Shown here: positions 2,436 through 63,999 of the stretch, one piece after another | How positions within the stretch are numbered: the stretch's first letter is position 1 | How the letters are laid out: the number at the start of each line of letters is the position of its first letter | Assembly: GCA_016125355.1 (NCBI GenBank) | Contig: WGLX01000011.1 | Location: 60,264-124,263 of the forward strand | Direction of reading: 5' to 3' | Origin: Actinomycetales bacterium | Lineage (GTDB): Bacteria > Actinomycetota > Actinomycetes > S36-B12 | DNA: 64,000 bases | Translations under genes and position numbers: made by a program | The notes under the pieces: model-generated | What the model was told of the DNA's origin: nothing | The model's database searches: none | Seen by the model: only the letters and a program-made list of their open reading frames with translations

Positions 2436-2904
2436 CCTCCCGCTGGTCGGCGTGGGCACGGACGTGCACGCCTTCGAAGAGGGGCGGCCACTCTGGCTCG
2501 CGGGGCTGCTGTGGCCCGGCGAGACCGGCCTGGCGGGCCACTCGGATGCGGACGTGGCCGCCCACGCCATCTGCGACGCACTGCTGTCTGCCGCAGGCCT
2601 GGGTGATCTCGGTGCGGTCTTCGGGACGAGTGACCCGCAGTGGGCCCAGGCGTCGGGGGTGTCCCTCCTGAGCCACACGGCGCACCTGGTGCGCGAGGCA
2701 GGCTTCGTCATCGGCAACGCCAGCGTGCAGATCGTCGGCAACCGTCCCAAGGTCGGACCTCGCCGGGAGGAGGCGCAGGACGTGCTCAGCGCAGCCATCG
2801 GGGCGCCGGTCCGGGTTTCCGGGACGACCACCGACGGCCTGGCGATGACTGGCCGTGGAGAGGGCGTTGCCGCCATTGCGGTAGCGTCGGTGGGACGGGC
2901 ATGA
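2425..2904 (+). CDS. ispF: 2-C-methyl-D-erythritol 2,4-cyclodiphosphate synthase
   Basis: [21 protein letters not shown]...[17 protein letters not shown] motif. 159 aa. Confidence 0.93.
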
Positions 2905-3647
2905 CGCCCTCGAGGGGAGCGACGGCGATGACGGTCCGAAGGATCCTTGTGGGTGCGGTGGCCGTAGCGGCCGGTGTGGGGCTGGCGACCGCCTCGCCGG
3001 CGAGTGCCTATGACACCGGCGCCTACGAGTACGCGGCCGGCCACATGATCGAGCGCACGGACATCCCCAAGTCCCTCGGCGCCTACAAGCCAGGACTCAG
3101 CTTCGGTGCGAATCCCGGGTTGAAGTCCCTGTGGATCTGCAATGTTCCGCAGGCCGACCCCAACGCACCCGACGTCACCGTGAAGGTGCCCGGCCCGAAG
3201 TACTCCTTCTCCGCGAGCTACAACGGTCGCGGCGCGCAGACGCCGTTCCTCAATGTCAACGTCAACCAGTACGCCAATGCCACGAAGGCGGAGGCCGCGT
3301 TCCGGCTGATCCAGTCCCGCGTGAAGGCCTGCTCCGGGACCGGCTCCGACACCTACACGGACGACGACGGCACCACCACCACCTACTCGTCGGCCGTGTC
3401 CCACGGGGTCGTGCCCTCGGTAACCACGGCGGGCGTCCAGTCCATCTTCGTGAGCATGAACAATCTCTCCGAGACGCTGCCCAAGGGCGGGATCTCGATC
3501 AGCGACTCCTACAACGTTCTCTCGCTCTTCGACGACACGATCATCGAGACGCAGTACTACTCGGGCGGTACCAAGAACCTGACGACCGCGCAGCGCCGGG
3601 CCGTCAACAAGGTCGCGTTCAACGCAGAGACAAGGTGGGTGGGCTGA
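2901..3647 (+). CDS. secreted protein of unknown function (signal peptide, two Cys; possible extracellular sensor-type domain)
   Basis: The ATG at 2901 overlaps the ispF stop (ATGA); an alternative ATG lies at 2928. Signal peptide [24 protein letters not shown]. No catalytic motif recognised. Confidence 0.6.
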
Positions 3648-20534: not shown

Positions 20535-22268
20535 TCAGGTGCGGGGCAGCAGGTCGACGAGGTCCTCGTACTGTCCGATGAGGTAGACGATGTCGCCCGG
20601 GCGGAAGGTGAGGTCGCCCGGCGGCGGGCACTGGAGGCGGCCGTCATCGTCCGCCCGTCGCACGCCGATGACGCGCACGTGATCCTCGAGCCGTCGGACG
20701 GTGCGGCCCTCGAAGCGGCCGCCGCTGTGCACGCTGACGCGGACGGCGATGAAGGGCATCTCGCCCACGTAGAAAGTGCCCATGGTCTCCAGGCCTAGGG
20801 CCGCGCCGACGAACCACGGTGCCGCGAGTTCGGCGATCGAACGCGGGATGCCGATCTCGAGGTTCTCCTTCACCACGCGGGCCAGGTTCTTCCCGAACAG
20901 GCGCAGGACGATGGGGACGGACGGGTCGCGCACGACCTCGCGAACGGACAGGCCGGTGTCGAGGTTGGTGAGGTCCGAACTGGTGAGGATGGCGATGCCG
21001 GCCGCACGGTGGACGCCCGCGTCCGCCTGCGTCTCGGGCAGCGTCGCGTCGCCGATGAGCACCGGCATCCCGAGACTGCGCATCTCCGGGATGAACCGCT
21101 GCCCCTCGCCTCCGTCGATGATGGCCACGTCGTGTCCGAGGTCGTGCAGGTCGCGTGCGACCTTGATGCCGACGGTGCCCAGTCCGATCACGACGATGTG
21201 GTCGCGCATGCCGGTGAGGCGCTGACGACCCAGCGACTGGGCCAGGCTGCGGGTGACGAGGGCGTTGGTCAACAGGGCCGTGGAGACGGCGATGAGGGTC
21301 GCGCCGAGCAGGATGAGGGCGGCCGCCCAGATGCGCAGCCAGTCGGGCTGGTCGCGGAAGTAGAAGTCGCCGAAGCCGACGGTGGCGATCGTCTCGGAGG
21401 TGAAGTAGATCGCGTCCAGCAGGCTCATCCGGGTGCCGTCCGGCTCGGTGTAGCCGAACCGGAGGATGACGACCGACACGAACGCGAGGCCGGCGAGGAT
21501 CCCGAAGGCGATGCGGAAGGGCCGGTCGACCACGCCGCCGATGGCGGCCAGGGATTCGCGGACCCGGCTGCGCAGGGGGCGACGCTGGCGGGTGCGTTGC
21601 TCGACGCTGACGTCGAGGCCGACGTCCCGGAACTGCTCGGGCGTGCCCACGAGAGTCACGCGATCGCCCTCCTCCGCCTCTTCGGATCGGCCCGGGCAGG
21701 CTACGCTGCGACCGCGTGAACCGGACTCGAGGGCGAGGGGCGACAGCGCGGGCCAGAGCTCGTCCAGGGCTCCCGTCCGGCGGCAGGCTTCGGTGGCGAC
21801 GATGAACTCGCGCCCGTCGAGGTCGAGGGAATGGGTGGTGCGGTTGATAGCTGCCTCGACGAAGGACAGCGAGGCCAGCTCGGCCACGTTGAGAACGGCC
21901 CCGGGCTGGGTGACGGTCTGGAGTGCGCGTCCCACGGCGGCGTTGGCCATCTGGACCACGATGCGGATCCGGGAGGAGCGCTCCCGGACGAGGAGCGCGA
22001 TCTCGATGTTGAGCAGGTCGTCGTCGGTCACGCAGATCGCGGCGCTGGCCTCGGCGACGTTGGCGGCGTCGAGGCTCTCCGAGCTCTGCCCGAACCCGGG
22101 CAGGTAGGTCACCTGGTAGCGCTGCATGGCCAGGATCTCGGCCGGGGTGGCGTCCGGCTGCAGGACGACGACGGGGACGCCGGTCTTGGCCATCTGCTTG
22201 ACGACGCGTCGTCCGACGCCGCGGAAGCCGTACACGACGACGTGGCCCCGGAGCGTGACCTCGGTCAT
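20535..22268 (-). CDS. potassium channel with two RCK/TrkA-N domains and a TrkA-C-like C-terminus
   Basis: K+ selectivity filter TVGFGD flanked by TM helices. Rossmann-like VVVYGFRGVGRRV at the N-terminus and IVVIGLGTVGIKVA after the pore. Confidence 0.85.
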   Translation of the reverse strand: MTEVTLRGHVVVYGFRGVGRRVVKQMAKTGVPVVVLQPDATPAEILAMQRYQVTYLPGFGQSSESLDAANVAEASAAICVTDDDLLNIEIALLVRERSSRIRIVVQMANAAVGRALQTVTQPGAVLNVAELASLSFVEAAINRTTHSLDLDGREFIVATEACRRTGALDELWPALSPLALESGSRGRSVACPGRSEEAEEGDRVTLVGTPEQFRDVGLDVSVEQRTRQRRPLRSRVRESLAAIGGVVDRPFRIAFGILAGLAFVSVVILRFGYTEPDGTRMSLLDAIYFTSETIATVGFGDFYFRDQPDWLRIWAAALILLGATLIAVSTALLTNALVTRSLAQSLGRQRLTGMRDHIVVIGLGTVGIKVARDLHDLGHDVAIIDGGEGQRFIPEMRSLGMPVLIGDATLPETQADAGVHRAAGIAILTSSDLTNLDTGLSVREVVRDPSVPIVLRLFGKNLARVVKENLEIGIPRSIAELAAPWFVGAALGLETMGTFYVGEMPFIAVRVSVHSGGRFEGRTVRRLEDHVRVIGVRRADDDGRLQCPPPGDLTFRPGDIVYLIGQYEDLVDLLPRT

Positions 22269-22306
22269 CCTGCCCCCTGTCGCCGTAGCCTGACGCGTCC
22301 GTGCAG

Positions 22307-22378
22307 AGCCCCCGGTCAGGTTTGAACTGACGACCTACCGCTTACAAGGCGGTTGCTCTACCACTGAGCTACAGGGGC
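22307..22378 (-). tRNA. tRNA-Thr (anticodon UGU)
   Basis: Manual cloverleaf: acceptor GCCCCTG/CGGGGGC, D arm GCTC-AGTGGTA-GAGC, anticodon arm ACCGC-CTTGTAA-GCGGT, T arm GTCAG-TTCAAAC-CTGAC, discriminator T. No encoded CCA. Confidence 0.9.
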
Positions 22379-22413
22379 GGAGGCCCCACGATACCGAGCA
22401 GCCTCGCCCGCAC

Positions 22414-22498
22414 CCCCCGCGAGTTGAACCGCTTCCCGGTTCAGTTCTGCAGAACTGAACCGGGTTCGCGGATAATCCGACGAATTGGGCCGCTTCCC
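22414..22498 (+). repeat. palindromic repeat element, family E, copy 1
   Basis: ccccccgcGAGTTGAACCGCTTCCCGG-ttcagttCTGCAGaactgaa-CCGGGttcGCGG, followed by a second GAATTGGGCCGCTTCCC motif. The perfect 30-bp palindrome spans 22435..22464. Confidence 0.9.
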
Positions 22499-22577
22499 CT
22501 CGAGCCGTGGCGTGGAGCCGACACCGATCCGGCACGGTCGACCCCGTGTCGATCAGGCGGTCCAAATCCCCAGTTCC

Positions 22578-22637
22578 CCCGCGAAACCGGCTCAAATCTG
22601 CAGATTTGAGCCGGGAAGCGGTTCAACTCGTGGGGAG
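22578..22637 (-). repeat. palindromic repeat element, family E, copy 2 (inverted relative to copy 1)
   Basis: The reverse complement reads ctccccacGAGTTGAACCGCTTCCCGG-ctcaaatCTGCAGatttgag-CCGGtttcGCGGG. Its outer motif supplies the last codons and the TGA of CDS 22623..23615. Confidence 0.9.
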
Positions 22638-23615
22638 GGCGAGGAAGGTCTGGGCGTTGGTGGTCAGCAGTCGGGTGGTCAGCTCCTCGTCGAGGTCGGC
22701 GGAGCGGATGACGGCCCCGGCCGGCCGTTCGCCGAGCGGATAGGGGTAATCGCTGCCGAGCAGGACCCGGTCGGTGCCGTGAACGTCGAGGAGCACCCGC
22801 AGCGACGTCGGGCTGAACACCACGGAATCCACGTAGACCCGCGAGGCGTAGGCGCTCGGCGGCCGTTCGCTGTCCGCGCCGACGAGGTCCCGGCGCTGCT
22901 CCCAGGCGTTGTCGGCCCGCCCGGTCCAGTAGGCGTACGAGCCGCCACCGTGGGCGAATCCGATGCGCAGTGACTCCGGCAGCCGGTCGAAGGCGCCGGA
23001 GAGGGCCAGCGACAGCAGGCTGAGCTGCGTCTCGGCCGGCATCCCCACGAGCCACTGCAGCATCCAGCGGTCGAGGCGCTCGCTGGTGGCCATGTCCCAC
23101 GGATGGACGAACACCGGGACGCCGCGGTCCGCGCAATGCTGGAGGAAGTCGACGATGGCGCCACTGTCGAGGTCGCGGTCGCCGACGTGGTTGCCGATCT
23201 CGACTCCGCGATGCCCGTTCTCGATGCACCGATCCAGCTCACGGCAGGCCGCATACGTGTCCTGCAAGGGCACCTGGCAGAACGGGATCAGCCGATCCGG
23301 CGCCTGCTCCGTCACGCTGAGCGCCAGGTCGTTGAAGATGCCGGCGACGCGCGCGCCGTCCGCCGGCGAGCGGTCGTACCCGAAGAACACCGGCGTTGGC
23401 AGGACCACCTGCTGGTCGATGCCGTCGGCATCCATGTCCGCGAGCCTCGTGTCCGCGTTCCAGCAGGCATCCGTGATGCGGCGGAACTCGCGGTCGCCCA
23501 GCATGATCGTGGCACCCGTCTCGGAGTCCATGCGCAGCCACGGATCCTCGGGCGAGCCGAGGTCGGGCCAGCCGGGCGGCACGACGTGCGTGTGCACGTC
23601 GACGACGGGGGACAC
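22623..23615 (-). CDS. nbaD: 2-amino-3-carboxymuconate-6-semialdehyde decarboxylase (amidohydrolase superfamily, ACMSD)
   Basis: N-terminal metal motif VDVHTHVVPP. 330 aa. The amidohydrolase_2 pattern and its position after the 3-hydroxyanthranilate dioxygenase gene fit ACMSD. Confidence 0.8.
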   Translation of the reverse strand: MSPVVDVHTHVVPPGWPDLGSPEDPWLRMDSETGATIMLGDREFRRITDACWNADTRLADMDADGIDQQVVLPTPVFFGYDRSPADGARVAGIFNDLALSVTEQAPDRLIPFCQVPLQDTYAACRELDRCIENGHRGVEIGNHVGDRDLDSGAIVDFLQHCADRGVPVFVHPWDMATSERLDRWMLQWLVGMPAETQLSLLSLALSGAFDRLPESLRIGFAHGGGSYAYWTGRADNAWEQRRDLVGADSERPPSAYASRVYVDSVVFSPTSLRVLLDVHGTDRVLLGSDYPYPLGERPAGAVIRSADLDEELTTRLLTTNAQTFLALPTS

Positions 23616-38784: not shown

Positions 38785-40041
38785 GTGCGGAAGCTGACCC
38801 GGACCCTGGTGGCCGCCACCGTCCTCGCTCTGGTGAGCACGGGCGTGGTGGTCGCTCCGCCCGCCCAGGCGGCGGACTCGATCGTCATCTGGTCGGATCC
38901 GGCGCACGCCCCCGTGCTCCAGCAGCTGCTGGGTGCCAGCTACGACGGCACGCCCGTCACCGTGGTCACGAAGGACCCGGCGACCGTGCGGAACGACCTC
39001 GCGACGGTCCGGCCGGCCGAGGCGCCGGACGTCGTGTGGGGTGATCTTGCGTGGACGGGGGAGCTCGCGTCGTCGCAGCTGATCGTTCCCATCACCATGA
39101 AGAAGAAGCGGCGTGGCCAGTTCCGTCCCAACGTCCTGGCCGGCTCGAACGTGGGCGGGGATCTCTACGGCCTCCCCGTGCAGATCAGCAACCTGGCCCT
39201 CGTCACGAACACGACCCTGGTCCCGCAGCAGCCGACGACGTTCAAGGCTCTCGAGGACCTCGCGTTGAAGCTGAAGAAGAACAAGAAGGCCCGGGTGCCG
39301 TTCGCCCTCGCCCAGAGCGACGGCACCTCGCCGTGGTCCACCTACCCGCTGTTCAGCGGCCTGGGCGGCTACCTGTTCGGCAAGACGTCGAACGGGAGCC
39401 TGAACGTCAAGGACATCGGCCTGGCGAACAAGAAGTTCCTCGGCAACAGCAGCTGGATCGGCCAGTGGAACAGCAGCGGCCTGATCGACTCCTCGCTCAC
39501 GCAGGACCGGGCGAAGACCGTGTTCAAGAAGGGCAACTCGGCCTTCTTCCTGGCTGGTCCGGAGGATCTCGAGTACCTCATGGGTCTCGGCTTCGCCTAC
39601 CGCATCGGGGCGCTGCCTCCGATCGTCAACGGCATCAAGCCGGTGCCGCTGCTCACGGTGCACGGGCTCATGGTGACGAAGTTCGCGGCGAAGCACGGAG
39701 TTGAGGACAAGGCGCTGGCCCTGGTCGGGAAGCAACTGTCCGGCGCCAAGCCTCAGCAGGCCCTGGCGGGTGCGCAGGGGTGGTTCCCCGCCAACAAGCG
39801 GGCGGCCGGAACCGTGCCGACCGGCGGCGGACGGATCCGCGCCATCGGCAACGCGGGCGTCGACGGGGTACCGATGCCGAACGTGCCAGAGGCCGGCGTG
39901 CTGTGGGGTCCGTACGCGACCGCGTGGACGACATCGACGAGCGGCTCCGGAGCCACCAAGGCCAAGAAGGCCTTCAAGAAGGCCCAGCGGCAGGCCACCA
40001 CGGGGCTGTCCGGCGGGACCAGCCCCTCCACCTCCGGCTGA
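38785..40041 (+). CDS. second MalE-like ABC substrate-binding protein (paralog of 29421..30659)
   Basis: GTG at 38785 is preceded by AAGGAAGG; the ORF-track start is 38749. Signal peptide present. It aligns with the first binding protein (YPLFSGLGGY.FG...GS.NVKD.GL.NK.F). Confidence 0.85.
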   Translation: MRKLTRTLVAATVLALVSTGVVVAPPAQAADSIVIWSDPAHAPVLQQLLGASYDGTPVTVVTKDPATVRNDLATVRPAEAPDVVWGDLAWTGELASSQLIVPITMKKKRRGQFRPNVLAGSNVGGDLYGLPVQISNLALVTNTTLVPQQPTTFKALEDLALKLKKNKKARVPFALAQSDGTSPWSTYPLFSGLGGYLFGKTSNGSLNVKDIGLANKKFLGNSSWIGQWNSSGLIDSSLTQDRAKTVFKKGNSAFFLAGPEDLEYLMGLGFAYRIGALPPIVNGIKPVPLLTVHGLMVTKFAAKHGVEDKALALVGKQLSGAKPQQALAGAQGWFPANKRAAGTVPTGGGRIRAIGNAGVDGVPMPNVPEAGVLWGPYATAWTTSTSGSGATKAKKAFKKAQRQATTGLSGGTSPSTSG

Positions 40042-40045
40042 CCCC

Positions 40046-40131
40046 CTCCCCACGAGTTGAACCGCTTCCCGGCTCACATCTGCAGATGTGAGCCGGGATC
40101 GCGGTGGTTCTGCGGATTTGAGCCGCTTGCC
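40046..40131 (+). repeat. palindromic repeat element, family E, copy 3
   Basis: ctccccacGAGTTGAACCGCTTCCCGG-ctcacatCTGCAGatgtgag-CCGGGatcGCGG, then GGATTTGAGCCGCTTGCC. It starts 5 nt after the binding-protein stop. Confidence 0.9.
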
Positions 40132-40235
40132 AGGGCACTGGCTGCTGCGCGCGGTCGCGACCGGAGGGGCGTCTGACCCGCGGGAAGGGGCGATTCCGGT
40201 CGTCCCGCCCGACGGGAATCGGATCACCCACATGG

Positions 40236-40262
40236 TTTGCACTCGGGGGGCTGGAGTGCTAA
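40236..40262. promoter_or_regulatory. CIRCE (HrcA operator) copy 1, slightly degenerate
   Basis: tTtGCACTC-N9-GAGTGCTAA compared with the consensus TTAGCACTC-N9-GAGTGCTAA. Confidence 0.85.
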
Positions 40263-40270
40263 CTTCGCTG

Positions 40271-41960
<1,690 letters not shown>

Positions 41961-41968
41961 TCCTCAAG

Positions 41969-42010
41969 GAGGGGAGGGCCGGGATCCGACAGGATCCCGG
42001 CCCTCCCCTC
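41969..42010 (+). terminator. groEL terminator hairpin (19-bp perfect stem, GACA loop)
   Basis: gaggggagggccgggatcc-gaca-ggatcccggccctcccctc begins 9 nt after the groEL stop and is followed by atttcg. Confidence 0.8.
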
Positions 42011-42018
42011 ATTTCGTC

Positions 42019-42074
42019 GACTGCTACGCCATTCACGGCATGGATGCCCCCTTGCGACGAATGCCGTAGCAGTC
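42019..42074. repeat. long-stem hairpin repeat, family D, copy 1 (left arm degenerate)
   Basis: gactgctacgccattcacggcatgg-atgccc-ccttgcgacgaatgccgtagcagtc. Its end overlaps the stop codon of CDS 42073..42996. Confidence 0.85.
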
Positions 42075-42996
42075 ACCGGAGCAGGGCCGCGCGCAGTTTC
42101 CGCTCGAGGGTCGGTCCGCCGCGGGCCAGGTCGCTCCAACCCCAACGGATGACGACCAGGCCCAGCGCCCGGAGCCGATCCTCCCGCCGCTTCTCCGCGT
42201 ACAGCGCCTCACGGGTGTCGTACTTCACCTGCCCGTCAGCCTCGCCGACCACGCGCGCGTGCGCCCACCAGAAGTCGACTCGACCGACGAACCCCTCCTG
42301 ATCCCAGAACTCGTGCTGGAGCTCGGGAGCAGGGAGTCCCCACTCGTGGAAGCGGGCGGCCGACCAGGATTCCAGGGCAGTCTCCCGCAGGCCGCTGAGC
42401 AAGGGAAGGGCGGCGGCCGCCCGGCGCCTCCCGCGCACGCCGCCGAGACGGTCGAGGACTGCGGCCGCGTCGACGACGTCAAGGCAGCCGTTGCGAACCG
42501 CGCGATCGCCCGCGGCCAGGGCGTCCCGGAGTGGCAGGGTTCGCGCGACGTCTACCCACGTTCGGGCCGACGTCGTCAGGCGCACTCCGGTGTCGGCCAC
42601 GTCCTCGCCGGCCAGGGTCAACTGGCGATATCGCACACCGTCGCGGATTCCCGTCCAGGCTCCAGGCGGTACGGCCAACTGAACGAGGTCCGGCGGTGGG
42701 CTGACCAGGGGGAGTCCGTCCACGATGGCGGCCGACTCGAACGCGACGACAGCCTGCTCGTGACGCCGGACGGCTGCTGCCGCGCGCAGAGCGTGCTCCA
42801 CGCGTTCAGCGCTATGGAGATCCAGGCCCCGGGGGCCAGCGACCCGGCGCAGGTACATCCCGGTCTGGAGCACCTGCCACTGCCCGCTGCGGACCCGATG
42901 CTGGATCTGGCCGTCGGACAGACCCGCGGACAGGGCCTGCCTCCGGGAGACCAGGAAGCCGAGGATGGGTGGGTCGGGCGCGGTGAGTCGGGGCAT
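42073..42996 (-). CDS. DUF559/endonuclease-like protein with an AbiEi-type N-terminal wHTH domain
   Basis: N-terminus LVSRRQALSAGLSDGQIQHRVRSGQWQVLQTGMY and C-terminus GRVDFWW...GEADGQVKY...REDRLRALGLVVIRWGWSDL are typical of this very common actinobacterial family. A TTG alternative start lies at 43008. Confidence 0.7.
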   Translation of the reverse strand: MPRLTAPDPPILGFLVSRRQALSAGLSDGQIQHRVRSGQWQVLQTGMYLRRVAGPRGLDLHSAERVEHALRAAAAVRRHEQAVVAFESAAIVDGLPLVSPPPDLVQLAVPPGAWTGIRDGVRYRQLTLAGEDVADTGVRLTTSARTWVDVARTLPLRDALAAGDRAVRNGCLDVVDAAAVLDRLGGVRGRRRAAAALPLLSGLRETALESWSAARFHEWGLPAPELQHEFWDQEGFVGRVDFWWAHARVVGEADGQVKYDTREALYAEKRREDRLRALGLVVIRWGWSDLARGGPTLERKLRAALLR

Positions 42997-43063
42997 GCCG
43001 CGACCCAAACCGGTAGACGGTCCCTCGGCAACCGCCCATCCACAGCTTCCCCGCCAGGCATCT

Positions 43064-43119
43064 CACTGCTACGGCATTCGTCGCAAGGCGGGGCCGTTGC
43101 GACGAATGCCGTAGCAGTC
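43064..43119. repeat. long-stem hairpin repeat, family D, copy 2 (perfect 22-bp stem)
   Basis: actgctacggcattcgtcgcaa-ggcggggccg-ttgcgacgaatgccgtagcagt, 12 nt downstream of the msiK-like stop on the minus strand. Confidence 0.9.
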
Positions 43120-43131
43120 GGGGGTGGGGGG

Positions 43132-44202
<1,071 letters not shown>

Positions 44203-48078: not shown

Positions 48079-49425
48079 ATGGCGATCGACTTCCCACCCG
48101 GGTTCGAACTCGGCGTGGCCACCTCGGCGTGGCAGATCGAGGGCGACGTAGCGGGCCGCGGCCGCTGCAACTGGGACGACTTCTCGGAGCGCCCCGGTGC
48201 CGTCGTCGACGGGGCCACCGGGGAGCCGGCGTGCGATCACGTGCACCGGCTCGAGGAGGACCTCGACCTGCTGATGTGGATGGGCGTGGACGCCTACCGA
48301 TTCTCCATCTCGTGGCCGAGGGCCATGGACGGTGATCGCCTGCGGCCGGAGGGCATCGACTTCTACGACCGCCTCATCGACGGGCTCCTGGCCCGCGGGA
48401 TCCGGCCCGTGGCGACGCTGTTCCACTGGGACCTGCCGAGCGAGCTCGAGGCCGCTGGCGGGTGGCCCAACCGCGACACGGCGCTCCGGTTCGCCGATTA
48501 CGCGGCGGCCATGGGGGAGCGCTACGCGGATCGCGTGGACCGCTGGGCCACGCTCAACGAGCCATGGTGCTCGGCCTTCCTGGGCTACTGCTCCGGCTAC
48601 TTCGCCCCCGGCCGCAAGGAGCCGGGTGCATCCCTCGCCGCCGCCTACCACCTGATCCTCGGGCACGGCCTGGCGATCGAGCGGCTGCGCTCGGCCGGGG
48701 CCCGCAACCTCGGGATCGTGCTGAACGTGATCCCGGTGATCAGCGAGACCGAGTCGATGGACGACGCCACCCGGCACGTCGACGCCGTCCAGAACCGGAT
48801 CTTCCTCGACCTGCTGGCCGGCAGGGGCGTTCCTGCGGACCTGAGGCAGTCTGCGTCCTCGGTGACGGACTGGTCCTTCGTCCGGGAGGACGACAACGCC
48901 GTCCTCTCCGCCCCCATCGACTGGATCGGCGAGAACTACTACTCGGTGATGCGCGTGGCCGAGCCCGACCTGGACAACACCGCGGCGATCGGGCAGGACA
49001 CTGCGGCCTTCCCGGCATGTCCACCCCTGCGCTTCGCTCCGCGCCCGCCGTTCACGGACATGGGCTGGGAGATCCTGCCGGAGGGCATCGAGCTGGCCCT
49101 GCGCGAGATCACCGACCACCTTCCCGGCGTGCCGATCTGGATCTGCGAGAACGGCGCCGCCGTGGAGGAGGTCACCGATGCGGACGGCATCCACGATGCG
49201 GTCCGGATCGAGTACATCGACGACCACCTGCGTGCCCTGACCCGTGCGGTCGAAAGGGGTTTCGACGTGCGCGGGTACTACGCGTGGAGCCTGATGGACA
49301 ACCTCGAGTGGGCGTCGGGCTGGACGAAGAAGTTCGGCATGATCCGCGTGGACCCGGAGACGGGAACCCGCACGCCCAAGGACAGCGCCCGCTGGTACCG
49401 GGACGTGCTGGCCGCGCGCCCCTGA
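48079..49425 (+). CDS. GH1 beta-glucosidase (BglC-like)
   Basis: ATG 48079. GH1 motifs FELGVATSAWQIEG, TLNEPW (acid/base Glu) and ICENGAA (nucleophile Glu). Confidence 0.92.
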   Translation: MAIDFPPGFELGVATSAWQIEGDVAGRGRCNWDDFSERPGAVVDGATGEPACDHVHRLEEDLDLLMWMGVDAYRFSISWPRAMDGDRLRPEGIDFYDRLIDGLLARGIRPVATLFHWDLPSELEAAGGWPNRDTALRFADYAAAMGERYADRVDRWATLNEPWCSAFLGYCSGYFAPGRKEPGASLAAAYHLILGHGLAIERLRSAGARNLGIVLNVIPVISETESMDDATRHVDAVQNRIFLDLLAGRGVPADLRQSASSVTDWSFVREDDNAVLSAPIDWIGENYYSVMRVAEPDLDNTAAIGQDTAAFPACPPLRFAPRPPFTDMGWEILPEGIELALREITDHLPGVPIWICENGAAVEEVTDADGIHDAVRIEYIDDHLRALTRAVERGFDVRGYYAWSLMDNLEWASGWTKKFGMIRVDPETGTRTPKDSARWYRDVLAARP

Positions 49426-59451: not shown

Positions 59452-59580
59452 CCGGCGTCAGCGGCGGGCCTGAACGCGTCTCGACGTCCGTCGCGGCGGG
59501 TTATCCACAGGCGCACGCCGAGGTCCCCAGGGCCACCGGGCCGACTGACGGGAGTCGGCCGGTGCTGACACGATGGCGGC

Positions 59581-62726: not shown

Positions 62727-62751
62727 AACGGGCAAGGCTACCCAACACGCC

Positions 62752-62807
62752 GACTGCTACCGCATTCGTCACAAGGTTGGTCCCTTGTGACGAATCACGT
62801 AGCAGTC
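62752..62807. repeat. long-stem hairpin repeat, family D, copy 3
   Basis: gactgctaccgcattcgtcacaagg-ttggtc-ccttgtgacgaatcacgtagcagtc. Its end overlaps the stop codon of the vWA gene. Confidence 0.88.
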
Positions 62808-63999
62808 AGCGGCGACGGGAGCGCACGTAGTCGGTGACGACGTACTCGCCGAGCCGTTCGCCGGACACCGCCAGCACCCGGCCGCCGTTGCGTCGCGCCA
62901 GGCCATCGAGGAAGCGGGCCAGCCCCGGCTCGTCTCCTAGTCGGAACCACGAGATCGGCACCCGGCGCCGCGTCATCCGATCCACCTGGGCGACGGTCTC
63001 CTCGATCGTCTCCATGGACGGCGGCCACGAGAACCAGCCCTCGCCCGACGGGAGCAGGTGGGCTGTCGGCTCGCCGTCCGTGACCACCATGACGATCCGC
63101 TGGGCACCCGGGTGCCGGTCGAGGAACTGGCCGGCCAGCATGAGCGCGTGCTGGAGGTTCGTGCCCTGCACGTGGCTGGCCTCGAGGTTCGGCAGCTCAT
63201 GCGGATGGACGATCCGCGCGACGTTGGCGAACGCGATCACCTGGAGGGCATCGAGCGGGTAGGCCGTGGACGCCAGTGAGTGCAGGGCGAGCGCCATCGT
63301 CTTGGCGTCGCGCCACGTGTCGTTCATGACCATGGAAAACGACTGGTCGATGAGCAGCGCCACCGCCGCCCGCGTGACCGTCTCGGTCTCGTGCACCTCG
63401 AAGTCGTCTGCGCGCAGCCGGGCGTCGTCGGCCGGATCCACGAGCCGCCGCGTCACGGCGTTGCGCAAGGTGCGGACGACGTCGACGGGCTGCTCGTCGC
63501 CGAACTCCCACGGCCGACTGGTGCCCGTCGTCTCGCCCGAGGCGCCAGACCGGTGGATCTCGTGGTTGCCCTGAGTGGCCCCGTCGAGGGAGTCGAACAC
63601 CTCGCGCAGGGCCGTGCGCCCGATGCGCCGGATCGCCTTGGGAGACAGCTGCAGCGTCTCGCCGTCGTTGAGGAGGTACCCCTGGCGTTCCAGCTCGCGC
63701 TGCAGCTCGCGCAAGGCCTCCAGGTCGTCGCGCGCCCCCCGGCCCAGTGCCCGCTCGACGGCCTGCTCGTCGATGGTCTCCAGGTCCGTCCGCGCGAAGC
63801 CCTCGCCGAGCTCGTCCGAGAGTTGCTCCAGTTCCGCCAGCTCGGCCAGGGCTTCAGTCGCGTCCGGCAGGCCGAGCCGCTGCTCTCCGGACATCGACTG
63901 CTGCCCACTCCAGCTGAACTCGGGCCGGAGGGCCTGGAGGTTCTCCTGGAGGGCCGACATCTCCGACTGGAGGTCCAGATCCGACAGTGCCTGCTCCAT
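62806..63999 (-). CDS. vWA-domain protein (MoxR-partner type), probably 5'-truncated by the window edge
   Basis: MIDAS-like DQSFSM ... VMVVTDGEPT pattern in the C-terminal half. The ORF stays open to the last full codon of the window. Confidence 0.75.
   Translation of the reverse strand: MEQALSDLDLQSEMSALQENLQALRPEFSWSGQQSMSGEQRLGLPDATEALAELAELEQLSDELGEGFARTDLETIDEQAVERALGRGARDDLEALRELQRELERQGYLLNDGETLQLSPKAIRRIGRTALREVFDSLDGATQGNHEIHRSGASGETTGTSRPWEFGDEQPVDVVRTLRNAVTRRLVDPADDARLRADDFEVHETETVTRAAVALLIDQSFSMVMNDTWRDAKTMALALHSLASTAYPLDALQVIAFANVARIVHPHELPNLEASHVQGTNLQHALMLAGQFLDRHPGAQRIVMVVTDGEPTAHLLPSGEGWFSWPPSMETIEETVAQVDRMTRRRVPISWFRLGDEPGLARFLDGLARRNGGRVLAVSGERLGEYVVTDYVRSRRR

Follow-up and report, generated by a model that had tools for sequence, protein, structure and literature searches.

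A REP/REPIN-like hairpin doublet inserted behind an ACMSD gene of uncultured Actinomycetota, with longer relatives that encode a putative nuclease and suggest an undescribed kind of small mobile element

Results and Discussion

The locus and its repeat units

The DNA examined in this study (the window) comprises 64,000 nucleotides of an uncultured Actinomycetales bacterium (GenBank assembly GCA_016125355.1, contig WGLX01000011.1, positions 60,264 to 124,263; all positions below are counted from the first letter of the window). Its central subject is a short inverted-repeat module that lies between a tRNA-Thr gene and an ACMSD gene, the last gene of a kynurenine-pathway operon (kynureninase, KMO-like monooxygenase, RidA, 3-HAO, and ACMSD, as assigned with Pfam). 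The features of the locus are as follows.

22306-22378, minus strand: tRNA-Thr(UGU), the neighbour downstream of the insertion (ARAGORN; Rfam tRNA, 72 bits)
22388-22393, minus strand: TATCGT, fitting the TANNNT -10 pattern, within the block CGGTATCGTGG (comparison of the window, L018/L019, and L025)
22402-22414, no strand: outer C-rich extension of the inverted repeat, CCTCGCCCGCACC, pairing with GGGGAGGGCGAGG at 22632-22644; marks roughly where the insertion ends towards the tRNA
22411-22498, plus strand: unit W1, tRNA-proximal (covariance model 89.4 bits, exact 19-mer, palindrome)
22421-22431, plus strand: outer box M1 of W1, GAGTTGAACCG, followed by CTTC
22436-22463, plus strand: hairpin of W1, 28 bp, inside a 30-bp palindrome and followed by an 18-nt spacer
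22482-22493, plus strand: inner box M4 of W1, GAATTGGGCCGC
22499-22551, no strand: unique centre of the doublet, without similarity to other units or to the interiors of the nuclease-gene cassettes described below
22552-22639, minus strand: unit W2, ACMSD-proximal (covariance model 88.3 bits, exact 19-mer, palindrome), with M1 at 22629-22619, hairpin at 22587-22614, and inner box M4 at 22568-22557
22623-23615, minus strand: ACMSD-like amidohydrolase gene (PF04909), with a translation ending in ...ALPTS and the stop

The 19-mer GAGTTGAACCGCTTCCCGG occurs exactly three times in the 64-kb window, at 22421-22439 (plus), 22611-22629 (minus), and 40054-40072 (plus), compared to an expectation of 0.01. 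Each copy is accompanied by a perfect palindrome centred on CTGCAG (22435-22464, 30 bp; 22587-22614, 28 bp; and 40069-40096), and the stems of the three units differ from one another on both arms (TTCAGTT/AACTGAA, CTCAAAT/ATTTGAG, and CTCACAT/ATGTGAG). A second, inner box that resembles the outer box follows 18 nt past the hairpin in all three units with identical spacing (GAATTGGGCCGC, GATTTGGACCGC, and GATTTGAGCCGC). A preliminary description of this DNA, made from the letters alone, had proposed searching with a covariance model; when such a model was built from 76 family members and run, it recovered three 88-nt units in the 64 kb (W1, W2, and a third unit, W3) at 88-93 bits. The next-best match, with 15 bits at 49127-49219, lies within a coding sequence and is attributed to chance. 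The inverted-repeat arms of the module are 92 nt long (22402-22493 and 22557-22648) and 76% identical, and the whole doublet can be folded into one hairpin of -169 kcal/mol (z = -10.6).

These results agree with the preliminary description in its outer motif, its palindromes, and its inner motif, in that the exact 19-mer, palindromes of 28-30 bp, and the tails GTTCGCGG and TTTCGCGG are all present. The two inverted copies that it placed at 22414-22471 and 22578-22637 likewise stand as a pair, with the correction that each unit extends over 88 nt and each arm over 92 nt. Because the repeat arms are longer than first described, the truly unique centre amounts to approximately 53-63 nt rather than the 106 bp given at that time. 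The inner box, unit W3 (40044-40131), and a nuclease-gene cassette at 42018-43120 had been overlooked.

A dispersed family with covarying stems

In other metagenome-assembled genomes (MAGs) of the genome collection, the exact 19-mer with the same hairpin architecture was found at three loci of MFD00032.bin.3.338 and at one locus of a Candidatus Nanopelagicales MAG. A metagenome scan with a pattern in which just the framework of the hairpin and the right half of the outer box were fixed matched at least 120 stretches; 118 units were kept after removal of chance-like matches, and at least 89 of these are distinct. All unit statistics given below (counts, distances, contexts, and forms) refer to the metagenome matches listed. 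Two contigs, of 115 and 165 kb, contain at least five copies each.

Each unit spans 88 nt and consists of an outer box, GA(T/G)TTGAACCG, with CTTC, a hairpin with a 12-bp stem, an 18-nt spacer, and an inner box, GAnnTGnnCCG. The hairpin follows the grammar CCGG-nnCAnnTC-loop-GAnnTGnn-CCGG, and the family consensus reads c-GATTTGAACCG-CTTC-CCGG-ttCAatTC-tGcA-GAatTGaa-CCGG-.atCgg-N12-GAttTGaaCCGc. The inner box, GA..T...CCG at a fixed distance, is invariant or nearly so although it lay outside the search pattern.

The 89 distinct units listed contain 44 different stem hexamers, and in 44 of the units the two arms are perfectly complementary. An alignment of 76 sequences contains double-sided changes at six of six free stem pairs, with 94 double-sided cells compared to 34 ± 5 in shuffled alignments; this value was reached in 0 of 500 shuffles, a count that is not a probability since the aligned sequences are related, and the signal collapses in controls with slid partners. 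The pattern is repeated at one orthologous site: behind era, five genomes with third codon positions only 64-77% identical carry units with five different stems, four of them perfectly paired. It is very probable that the module in the window is an inverted doublet without an open reading frame (ORF), belonging to a dispersed REP/REPIN-like hairpin family of uncultured high-GC Actinomycetota. The dispersed nature suggested by the preliminary description is thus borne out by two further MAGs and at least 89 distinct metagenome units.

Filled and empty sites in the window and its relatives

In the nearest relatives (L018-L020, ACMSD 86-87% identical), the ACMSD gene ends in ..FLGRR-TAG and the tRNA-Thr gene follows after 24 nt; the module, approximately 235 nt, is missing, and a TrkA-type channel gene lies past the tRNA, as in the window. 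Another relative, L025 (ACMSD 88% identical, same tRNA), contains an inverted doublet at the orthologous position, where ACMSD ends in ..FLG-TGA, 13 nt ahead of the outer box. Between the doublets of the window and L025 the boxes and the hairpin framework are kept and the centres are unalignable. Since the doublet is common to both, its insertion predates their split. The ends ..FLGRR and ..FLG of the relatives indicate that the window terminus ..FLALPTS therefore arose from reading into the element, and the TGA of ACMSD (22625-22623) falls inside M1 of W2. On this comparison of sequences, W2 supplies the last codons and the stop of ACMSD, and the C-terminus was remodelled by the insertion. 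Remodelling of this gene end had already been proposed, and it is upheld both by the position of the TGA in the outer motif and by the different C-termini of the relatives. Empty sites, which the preliminary description recommended looking for, were found in relatives at both window loci, that of the W1/W2 doublet and that of W3. Its own alternative, a motif confined to these loci and conserved at their orthologues as an ordinary terminator would be, fails because the family is dispersed and the sites of the nearest relatives are empty.

Immediately upstream of tRNA-Thr, the block CGGTATCGTGG is kept in all three lineages, whether the module is present or missing, and TATCGT within it is probably the tRNA-Thr promoter, just outside the insertion; the tRNA gene therefore probably keeps its own promoter. 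A remnant of the tRNA T-arm or an integrase att site was also considered and rejected, given that the 3' part of tRNA-Thr is unmatched and the module sits 5' of the tRNA. Logan contigs of near-identical strains (L024, SRR10063242, and L148, DRR438470) end 13 and 32 nt past the stops, inside the outer box or the hairpin, as is typical for repeats, and the units thus appear to break short-read assemblies.

The third unit lies 17.5 kb from the doublet.

40044-40131, plus strand: unit W3, solo (covariance model 92.7 bits), absent from relatives L145-L147

M1 of W3 starts 12 nt past the TGA (40039-40041) of a gene for a sugar-binding protein, with which the unit is co-oriented, and W3 lies upstream of the groEL promoter and CIRCE element. 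In L147 and in L145/L146, the sugar-binding-protein gene ends in ..GGCTGA and the groEL promoter/CIRCE follows 11-36 nt on; compared to L145-L147, the window contains approximately 190 extra nt, starting exactly after GGCTGACCCCC. The sequence GTTTCGCGG in L147 was considered as an excision scar and set aside, as the match shrinks to about 7 unique nt and is likely due to chance. Taken together, the comparisons show an ORF-less REP/REPIN-like doublet inserted behind the ACMSD stop with a remodelled C-terminus, and a third unit of the same family 17.5 kb away.

Several other features were observed around groEL. The CIRCE-type inverted repeat, GAGTGCTAA-N8-TTAGCACTC at 40254-40279, is conserved in the relatives. 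About 100 nt between W3 and the groEL promoter (40132-40240) are missing in the relatives, as W3 itself is; within this segment are a hairpin, GATTCCGGTCG...CGACGGGAATC, and a stretch of GGGAAGGGGCGATTC, which might be a decayed inverted partner unit. Behind groEL, a GC-rich, bidirectional terminator-like hairpin (41966-42013) has a counterpart at the L147 empty site described below, and the genome therefore uses conventional hairpins beside its repeat families.

Placement and forms of the units

Genes around the units were called with a simple, crude caller based on GC content at third codon positions (GC3). Of 84 units, 65 have the outer box facing the 3' end of a gene; for 50 of them the distance from the stop codon is between -7 and +56 nt, with modes at -7 (TGA inside GAnTTGAACC) and +1 (stop codon, c, GATTTG). 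Modules occupy convergent, tandem, and divergent intergenic regions in 20, 23, and 1 cases, respectively (background 54/179/33), and all 10 of the 10 solo units in tandem contexts point the same way as the genes. The stops beside units are TGA in 34 cases, TAG in 6, and TAA in 6 (background 69/26/5%). A target preference for TGA was dismissed; all three stop types occur beside units, and the stop codon is not always supplied by the element.

The units occur in several forms: solo units, wide doublets as in the window, a compact 88-nt doublet (box, hairpin A, a 2-nt spacer NN, hairpin B, and box), and box-hairpin-box palindromes. In solo units, the inner box is the counterpart of the right arm of a second hairpin that has decayed. 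Target-site duplications were found at 0 of the 45 inverted-repeat-bounded elements listed and at none of the empty/filled pairs (three comparisons). The inverted repeat often extends 1-25 nt past the outer box into copy-specific sequence. In the Candidatus Nanopelagicales MAG (L004, 2565-2745), the inverted repeat of the doublet reaches GGCTGAGTCTGGGGAGTTGAACC on both sides, and the repeat therefore includes the last codons and the stops of the two convergent genes. Mismatches in the stems are symmetric, with 27 G-T compared to 28 A-C overall and 16 compared to 14 near stops; selection on the hairpin at the RNA level only was accordingly set aside as unsupported, since the sense-strand mismatches have no excess of G-U over A-C.

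Putative nuclease-gene cassettes bounded by hairpin units

Some pairs of units approximately 1.1 kb apart enclose a single ORF of about 330 aa that is preceded by CTGTGGA(T/C)AAC. Such cassettes occur in at least two distinct contexts. In one the order is AI-2E permease, unit, ORF, inverted unit, and era (L051, L081, L150, and others), and in another the cassette lies in a ROK..TPP region with different immediate neighbours (L149 and L153). The L149 ORF (57% identity) is flanked by a hypothetical gene and a TPP-enzyme gene, and the L153 ORF (54% identity) by YkuD and a histidine kinase; both have covariance-model matches on both sides, at the same relative positions as in the AI-2E/era cassette. 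In L149 and L150 (21 kb each), the two units around the ORF are the sole significant covariance-model matches. A paralogue in L151 (40% identity), between dapD and citrate synthase, is bounded by a 63-nt inverted repeat with GTTTGCGCCGG-TTA-CCGGCGCAAAT. The window contains a cassette with yet another hairpin type, designated family 2.

42018-43120, minus strand: window cassette with family-2 hairpins; arms 42018-42073 and 43065-43120, 56 nt, each a hairpin
42073-43008, minus strand: ORF of the window cassette, 311 aa, AbiEi_4/DUF559-like (tblastn, 35% identity to the L051 ORF)
62751-62808, no strand: family-2 solo hairpin, GACTGCTACCGCATTCGTCACAA-N10-TTGTGACGAATCACGTAGCAGTC, between greA and a VWA-domain gene

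The ORF of the window cassette has the motif GCTGTGGATGG upstream and weak Pfam matches to AbiEi_4 and DUF559. The cassette is flanked by the groEL terminator on one side and by the stop of an ABC-ATPase gene on the other; it is missing as a whole in L147, where groEL and the ABC-ATPase gene are parted only by an ordinary terminator hairpin. At the solo hairpin approximately 20 kb away, the outer GA completes the TGA of the VWA-domain gene (62806-62808, minus strand), and a compensatory change from G:C to A:T distinguishes it from the cassette arms. With hairpins specific to each paralogue and with ORF-less copies, each protein lineage therefore has its own hairpin type, as reported for RAYT/REP.

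Every cassette ORF has the conserved motif CTGTGGA(T/C)(A/G)(A/T)C approximately 25-50 nt ahead of its start codon; the motif resembles the DnaA box TTATCCACA (window 43036-43046, minus strand; L051 1767-1783; also L149, L150, and L151). An occurrence of CTGTGGATAAC at 59500-59510 was rejected as the sign of a further cassette, there being no cassette-like repeats nearby. Elements of both hairpin families have on their gene side a linker of about 12 nt that is rich in C and poor in G (CCCCCTCCCCAC, CCCCCCACCCCC, and CCGCCCCCCCCCA, at window 40042-40053, window 43121-43132 on the minus strand, and L025 6255-6267); it may be part of the elements or may reflect a target preference. A homologue in the cultured Paenarthrobacter sp. 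DKR-5 (L152, 35% identity) has no flanking inverted repeat, with palindromes upstream only (a 64-nt palindrome and repeated GTTAGCAACCTGGAC at 2698-3000), and is a possible cultivable entry point. A truncated homologue of the cassette protein in L154 is also without a flanking inverted repeat.

A structure of the cassette protein was predicted with AlphaFold (AF2) on 32 homologues and compared to known structures with Foldseek. The model has a mean confidence (pLDDT) of 93.6. The AbiEi antitoxin (6y8q, E 2e-5) and Rv2827c are the structures that its N-terminal and middle parts resemble, and its last ~100 residues match the catalytic domain of I-Bth0305I (3r3p, TM score 0.73, root-mean-square deviation 3.1), as well as the DUF559 protein NGO0050 (3hrl) and Vsr (1cw0). 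D258, E269, D271, and K275 are among the residues invariant in the 32 homologues, and the L051 ORF matches Pfam DUF559 with 22.7 bits compared to a cut-off of 20.6. I-Bth0305I, DUF559, and Vsr form one PD-(D/E)xK clade, which includes a group I intron homing endonuclease (PMC3424549), and AbiEi is reported to be a binder of inverted repeats (PMC7319586). The cassette protein is thus a putative AbiEi-like winged-helix DNA binder fused to a PD-(D/E)xK nuclease domain of the Vsr/DUF559/homing-endonuclease type. The modelled fold and the conserved acidic and lysine residues place it among the Vsr/DUF559 nucleases, with catalysis predicted, and the combination of a DNA binder with a nicking or cleaving domain makes it a plausible candidate enzyme for hairpin-ended DNA. 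It is similar to homing endonucleases such as I-Bth0305I and to AbiEi in its predicted domain folds; however, the cassette has neither an intron or intein context nor an AbiEii toxin partner, and its gene is bounded by long hairpin inverted repeats that are also found ORF-less.

Comparison with known repeat families and sequence elements

Correia/NEMIS elements of Neisseria have target-site duplications and derive from DDE-transposase insertion sequences. The present family is similar to them in consisting of small, inverted-repeat-bounded intergenic repeats that can supply stops and terminator-like hairpins, but neither a duplication nor a DDE partner is seen in it. With miniature inverted-repeat transposable elements (MITEs) in general it likewise shares terminal inverted repeats, small size, and the absence of an ORF, yet neither a target-site duplication nor a DDE parent was found, and the only ORF-bearing relative encodes an AbiEi/DUF559-type protein. 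The preliminary description left the choice between a MITE-like and a REP-doublet-like architecture open; the latter is the better fit because target-site duplications are absent.

Short extragenic palindromic units with conserved flanks, as in REP/REPIN populations, are present in at least 89 copies (with 1 of 44 modules in a divergent region), and inverted doublets and double-foot palindromes have counterparts in the window doublet, the 88-nt doublets, and the box-hairpin-box forms. Such doublets and palindromes have been described as REPINs and double-foot REPs, and the long or "double-foot" palindromes have been attributed to central deletion of a doublet (PMC3337134, PMC6006769). Compared to the REP/BIME/REPIN and RAYT systems of Enterobacteria and Pseudomonas, the family shares the flank-palindrome-flank unit, doublets that fold into one long hairpin, an extragenic position mostly behind genes, the lack of target-site duplications, long vertical persistence, and a single repeat-flanked gene with its own repeat type for each paralogue. 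In contrast, the GT[AG]G foot is missing, the flanked gene is of AbiEi-like/Vsr-DUF559 type rather than HUH-Y1, the stems vary by compensatory change with the flanking boxes being most conserved, and the hosts are high-GC Actinomycetota. Specifically, no 5' GT[AG]G hairpin foot occurs on either strand (CTTC then CCGG, versus GATA, GAAA, or GATC then CCGG). No RAYT/Y1_Tnp was found by Pfam among the ~57 ORFs of the window, and none by tblastn over 1.08 Mb of unit-bearing loci, a weak test with an E. coli RAYT query. IS200/IS605 elements also have subterminal hairpins at their ends and no target-site duplication, but their asymmetric ends and Y1 HUH transposase were not seen in the present elements. 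The earlier statement that no transposase is present in the window holds for canonical families in the Pfam scan of its ~57 ORFs, and no recurrent neighbouring transposase was found among 103 ORFs flanking units. The literature searched contained no report of REP/RAYT or MITEs for Actinobacteria or Nanopelagicales, no match for the sequence, and no DUF559/AbiEi cassettes with inverted repeats.

Other known elements were also compared to the module. The hairpin of an intrinsic terminator is present, with no U-tract following it (the tail is GTTCGCGG, TTTCGCGG, or GATCGCGG); a terminator-consensus scan gave 0 matches in 22250-22700, and a promoter-consensus scan gave none at the module. By inspection, neither the outer box GA(T/G)TTGAACCG nor its complement agrees with the RYYYAAC/GTTRRRY core sites of integron attC; no integrase is present in the window, and the neighbours of the units are core housekeeping genes. 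Rfam searches at E values up to 10 gave chance-level matches only, with the exception of the tRNA, and a scan of viral contigs and BLAST searches against plasmid and phage collections gave no match. A DNA-uptake sequence, GAnYTGnnCCGS, was rejected because it is confined to the units (10 of 13 window matches are inside the three units, with 5 expected by chance). An attenuator-like alternative, in which the outer box pairs with the left arm of the hairpin, was set aside as well; it fits W1 and consensus copies but has 2-3 mismatches in W2 and W3.

Proposed explanation and alternatives

The observations can be accounted for by the following sequence of events. In an ancestor of the window genome and L025, the doublet was inserted into the space separating the ACMSD stop from the tRNA-Thr promoter, and no target-site duplication was made. 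A cassette of approximately 1.2 kb, made up of two inverted units around one AbiEi/DUF559-type gene, would be the partner of the hairpin family; the boxes or hairpins of the repeat would be bound by its protein and nicked or cleaved at that point. Through repair or strand transfer, new copies would then be made of the cassette and, in trans, of the short ORF-less units. The new sites would be located just behind stop codons, and the cassette would thus play a role like that of RAYT for REPINs with an unrelated enzyme. Once installed, the hairpins would probably act as mRNA 3'-end structures (terminator or stabiliser), which would explain both their tolerance and their orientation. To this explanation as a whole, a dispersed REP-like insertion plus a nuclease partnership, a probability of roughly 0.55 is assigned. 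For the partnership with the AbiEi-DUF559 cassette, which may mobilise the hairpin family, the inferred odds are about even. The longer ORF-bearing relatives suggest an undescribed kind of small mobile element; the fullest form of this idea, a RAYT-independent "REPtron" in which a hairpin-bounded cassette of ~1.2 kb spreads itself and ORF-less units behind stops without target-site duplication, with protein lineages co-evolving with hairpin types as an undescribed class, is put forward tentatively and at somewhat less than even odds.

Several observations weigh against this explanation. The co-orientation of solo units and their retention behind era could reflect a host function rather than mobility, the gene contexts rest on crude GC3-based calls, and the DUF559 and AbiEi_4 matches in Pfam are marginal. 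A wider neighbourhood is common to L149 and L153, which may represent one old insertion, in which case there are only two to three independent contexts, and the lack of additional copies in the 21 kb of L149 and L150 means that amplification is not universal. No cassette with the unit type of W1-W3 is present in the 64-kb window; the window cassette has a different hairpin, and the enzyme for W1-W3, if any, is therefore unseen. The centre of the doublet is without similarity to cassette interiors, and descent of the doublet from a cassette by internal deletion is therefore unsupported.

There are several potential alternatives. If the family were a classical REP/REPIN system, a single-copy RAYT located elsewhere would mobilise the units and the AbiEi-DUF559 gene would merely occupy spacers that hold units. 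The REPIN-like architecture, the lack of target-site duplication, the extragenic placement, and the long vertical persistence are all in keeping with this possibility (PMC3337134, PMC6006769), and a RAYT could easily be missed when only a tiny part of any host genome was examined. However, there is no GT[AG]G foot, no HUH/Y1_Tnp among the ~57 window ORFs, and no hit in the 1.08 Mb covered by the weak tblastn search, and the gene flanked by units belongs to a different family, with paralogues that have their own hairpin types, the pattern expected of a partner enzyme; a hidden RAYT is therefore considered unlikely. An ordinary MITE, that is, a deletion derivative of a DDE-transposase insertion sequence, would account for terminal inverted repeats of 19-27 nt and for short, ORF-less, multi-copy elements that vary in presence and absence, but the lack of target-site duplications at 45 elements and in three empty/filled comparisons, the lack of a transposase beside any unit or in the window, and the empty searches of plasmids, phages, and viral contigs make this origin highly improbable.

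Alternatively, the doublets may be targets of a free-standing, homing-endonuclease-like gene that enters their centre, in which case ORF-less doublets would be empty targets and the repeats would have spread by other means. Such homing would fit a nuclease domain whose fold is closest to I-Bth0305I, in a clade with a group I intron homing endonuclease (PMC3424549), a cassette that is present in the window and absent in L147, and doublet centres unrelated to cassette interiors. Many occupied doublets would then be expected, though, and a cassette with this unit type was found at one syntenic locus among at least 120 unit-bearing loci; the empty site in L147 has an ordinary terminator hairpin only and no family-2 doublet, and dispersal of the repeat is left unexplained, so homing has a low probability. 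It is also conceivable that the units are signals at gene 3' ends (a terminator, a stabiliser, or a protein site GAnnTGnnCCG) that were selected for and spread by recombination, with mobility being incidental. Units abut all three stop types, avoid divergent regions, are co-oriented in 10 of 10 solo cases, and have been retained behind era in five diverged genomes, where the stems are different but still complementary, and their invariant boxes and very stable hairpins also fit such a role. On the other hand, an identical 19-mer at unrelated loci requires copying rather than convergence, there is neither a U-tract nor a terminator-consensus match, the lack of a G-U over A-C excess argues against selection at the RNA level alone, close relatives do without units at both window loci, and doublets in tandem contexts also have one unit facing a gene start. 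As a full account, host function is doubtful; as a secondary role, it is compatible with the dispersed insertion and nuclease partnership proposed here.

Implications

REP/REPIN populations are known mainly from Proteobacteria, where they are tied to the RAYT enzyme family. The family described in this study shows that uncultured Actinomycetota (Nanopelagicales-type and related MAGs) have a repeat population comparable to these, with a different sequence grammar and a different candidate enzyme, and its units change annotated C-termini, such as that of ACMSD. If the partnership with the cassette protein is true, the "domesticated nuclease plus hairpin repeat" lifestyle would have arisen independently for a second time, and the partnership would give a mobilisation role to the widespread, uncharacterised AbiEi_4-DUF559 proteins of Actinobacteria. 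It would also provide a handle on how genes gain new 3' ends, stop codons, and terminator-like hairpins.

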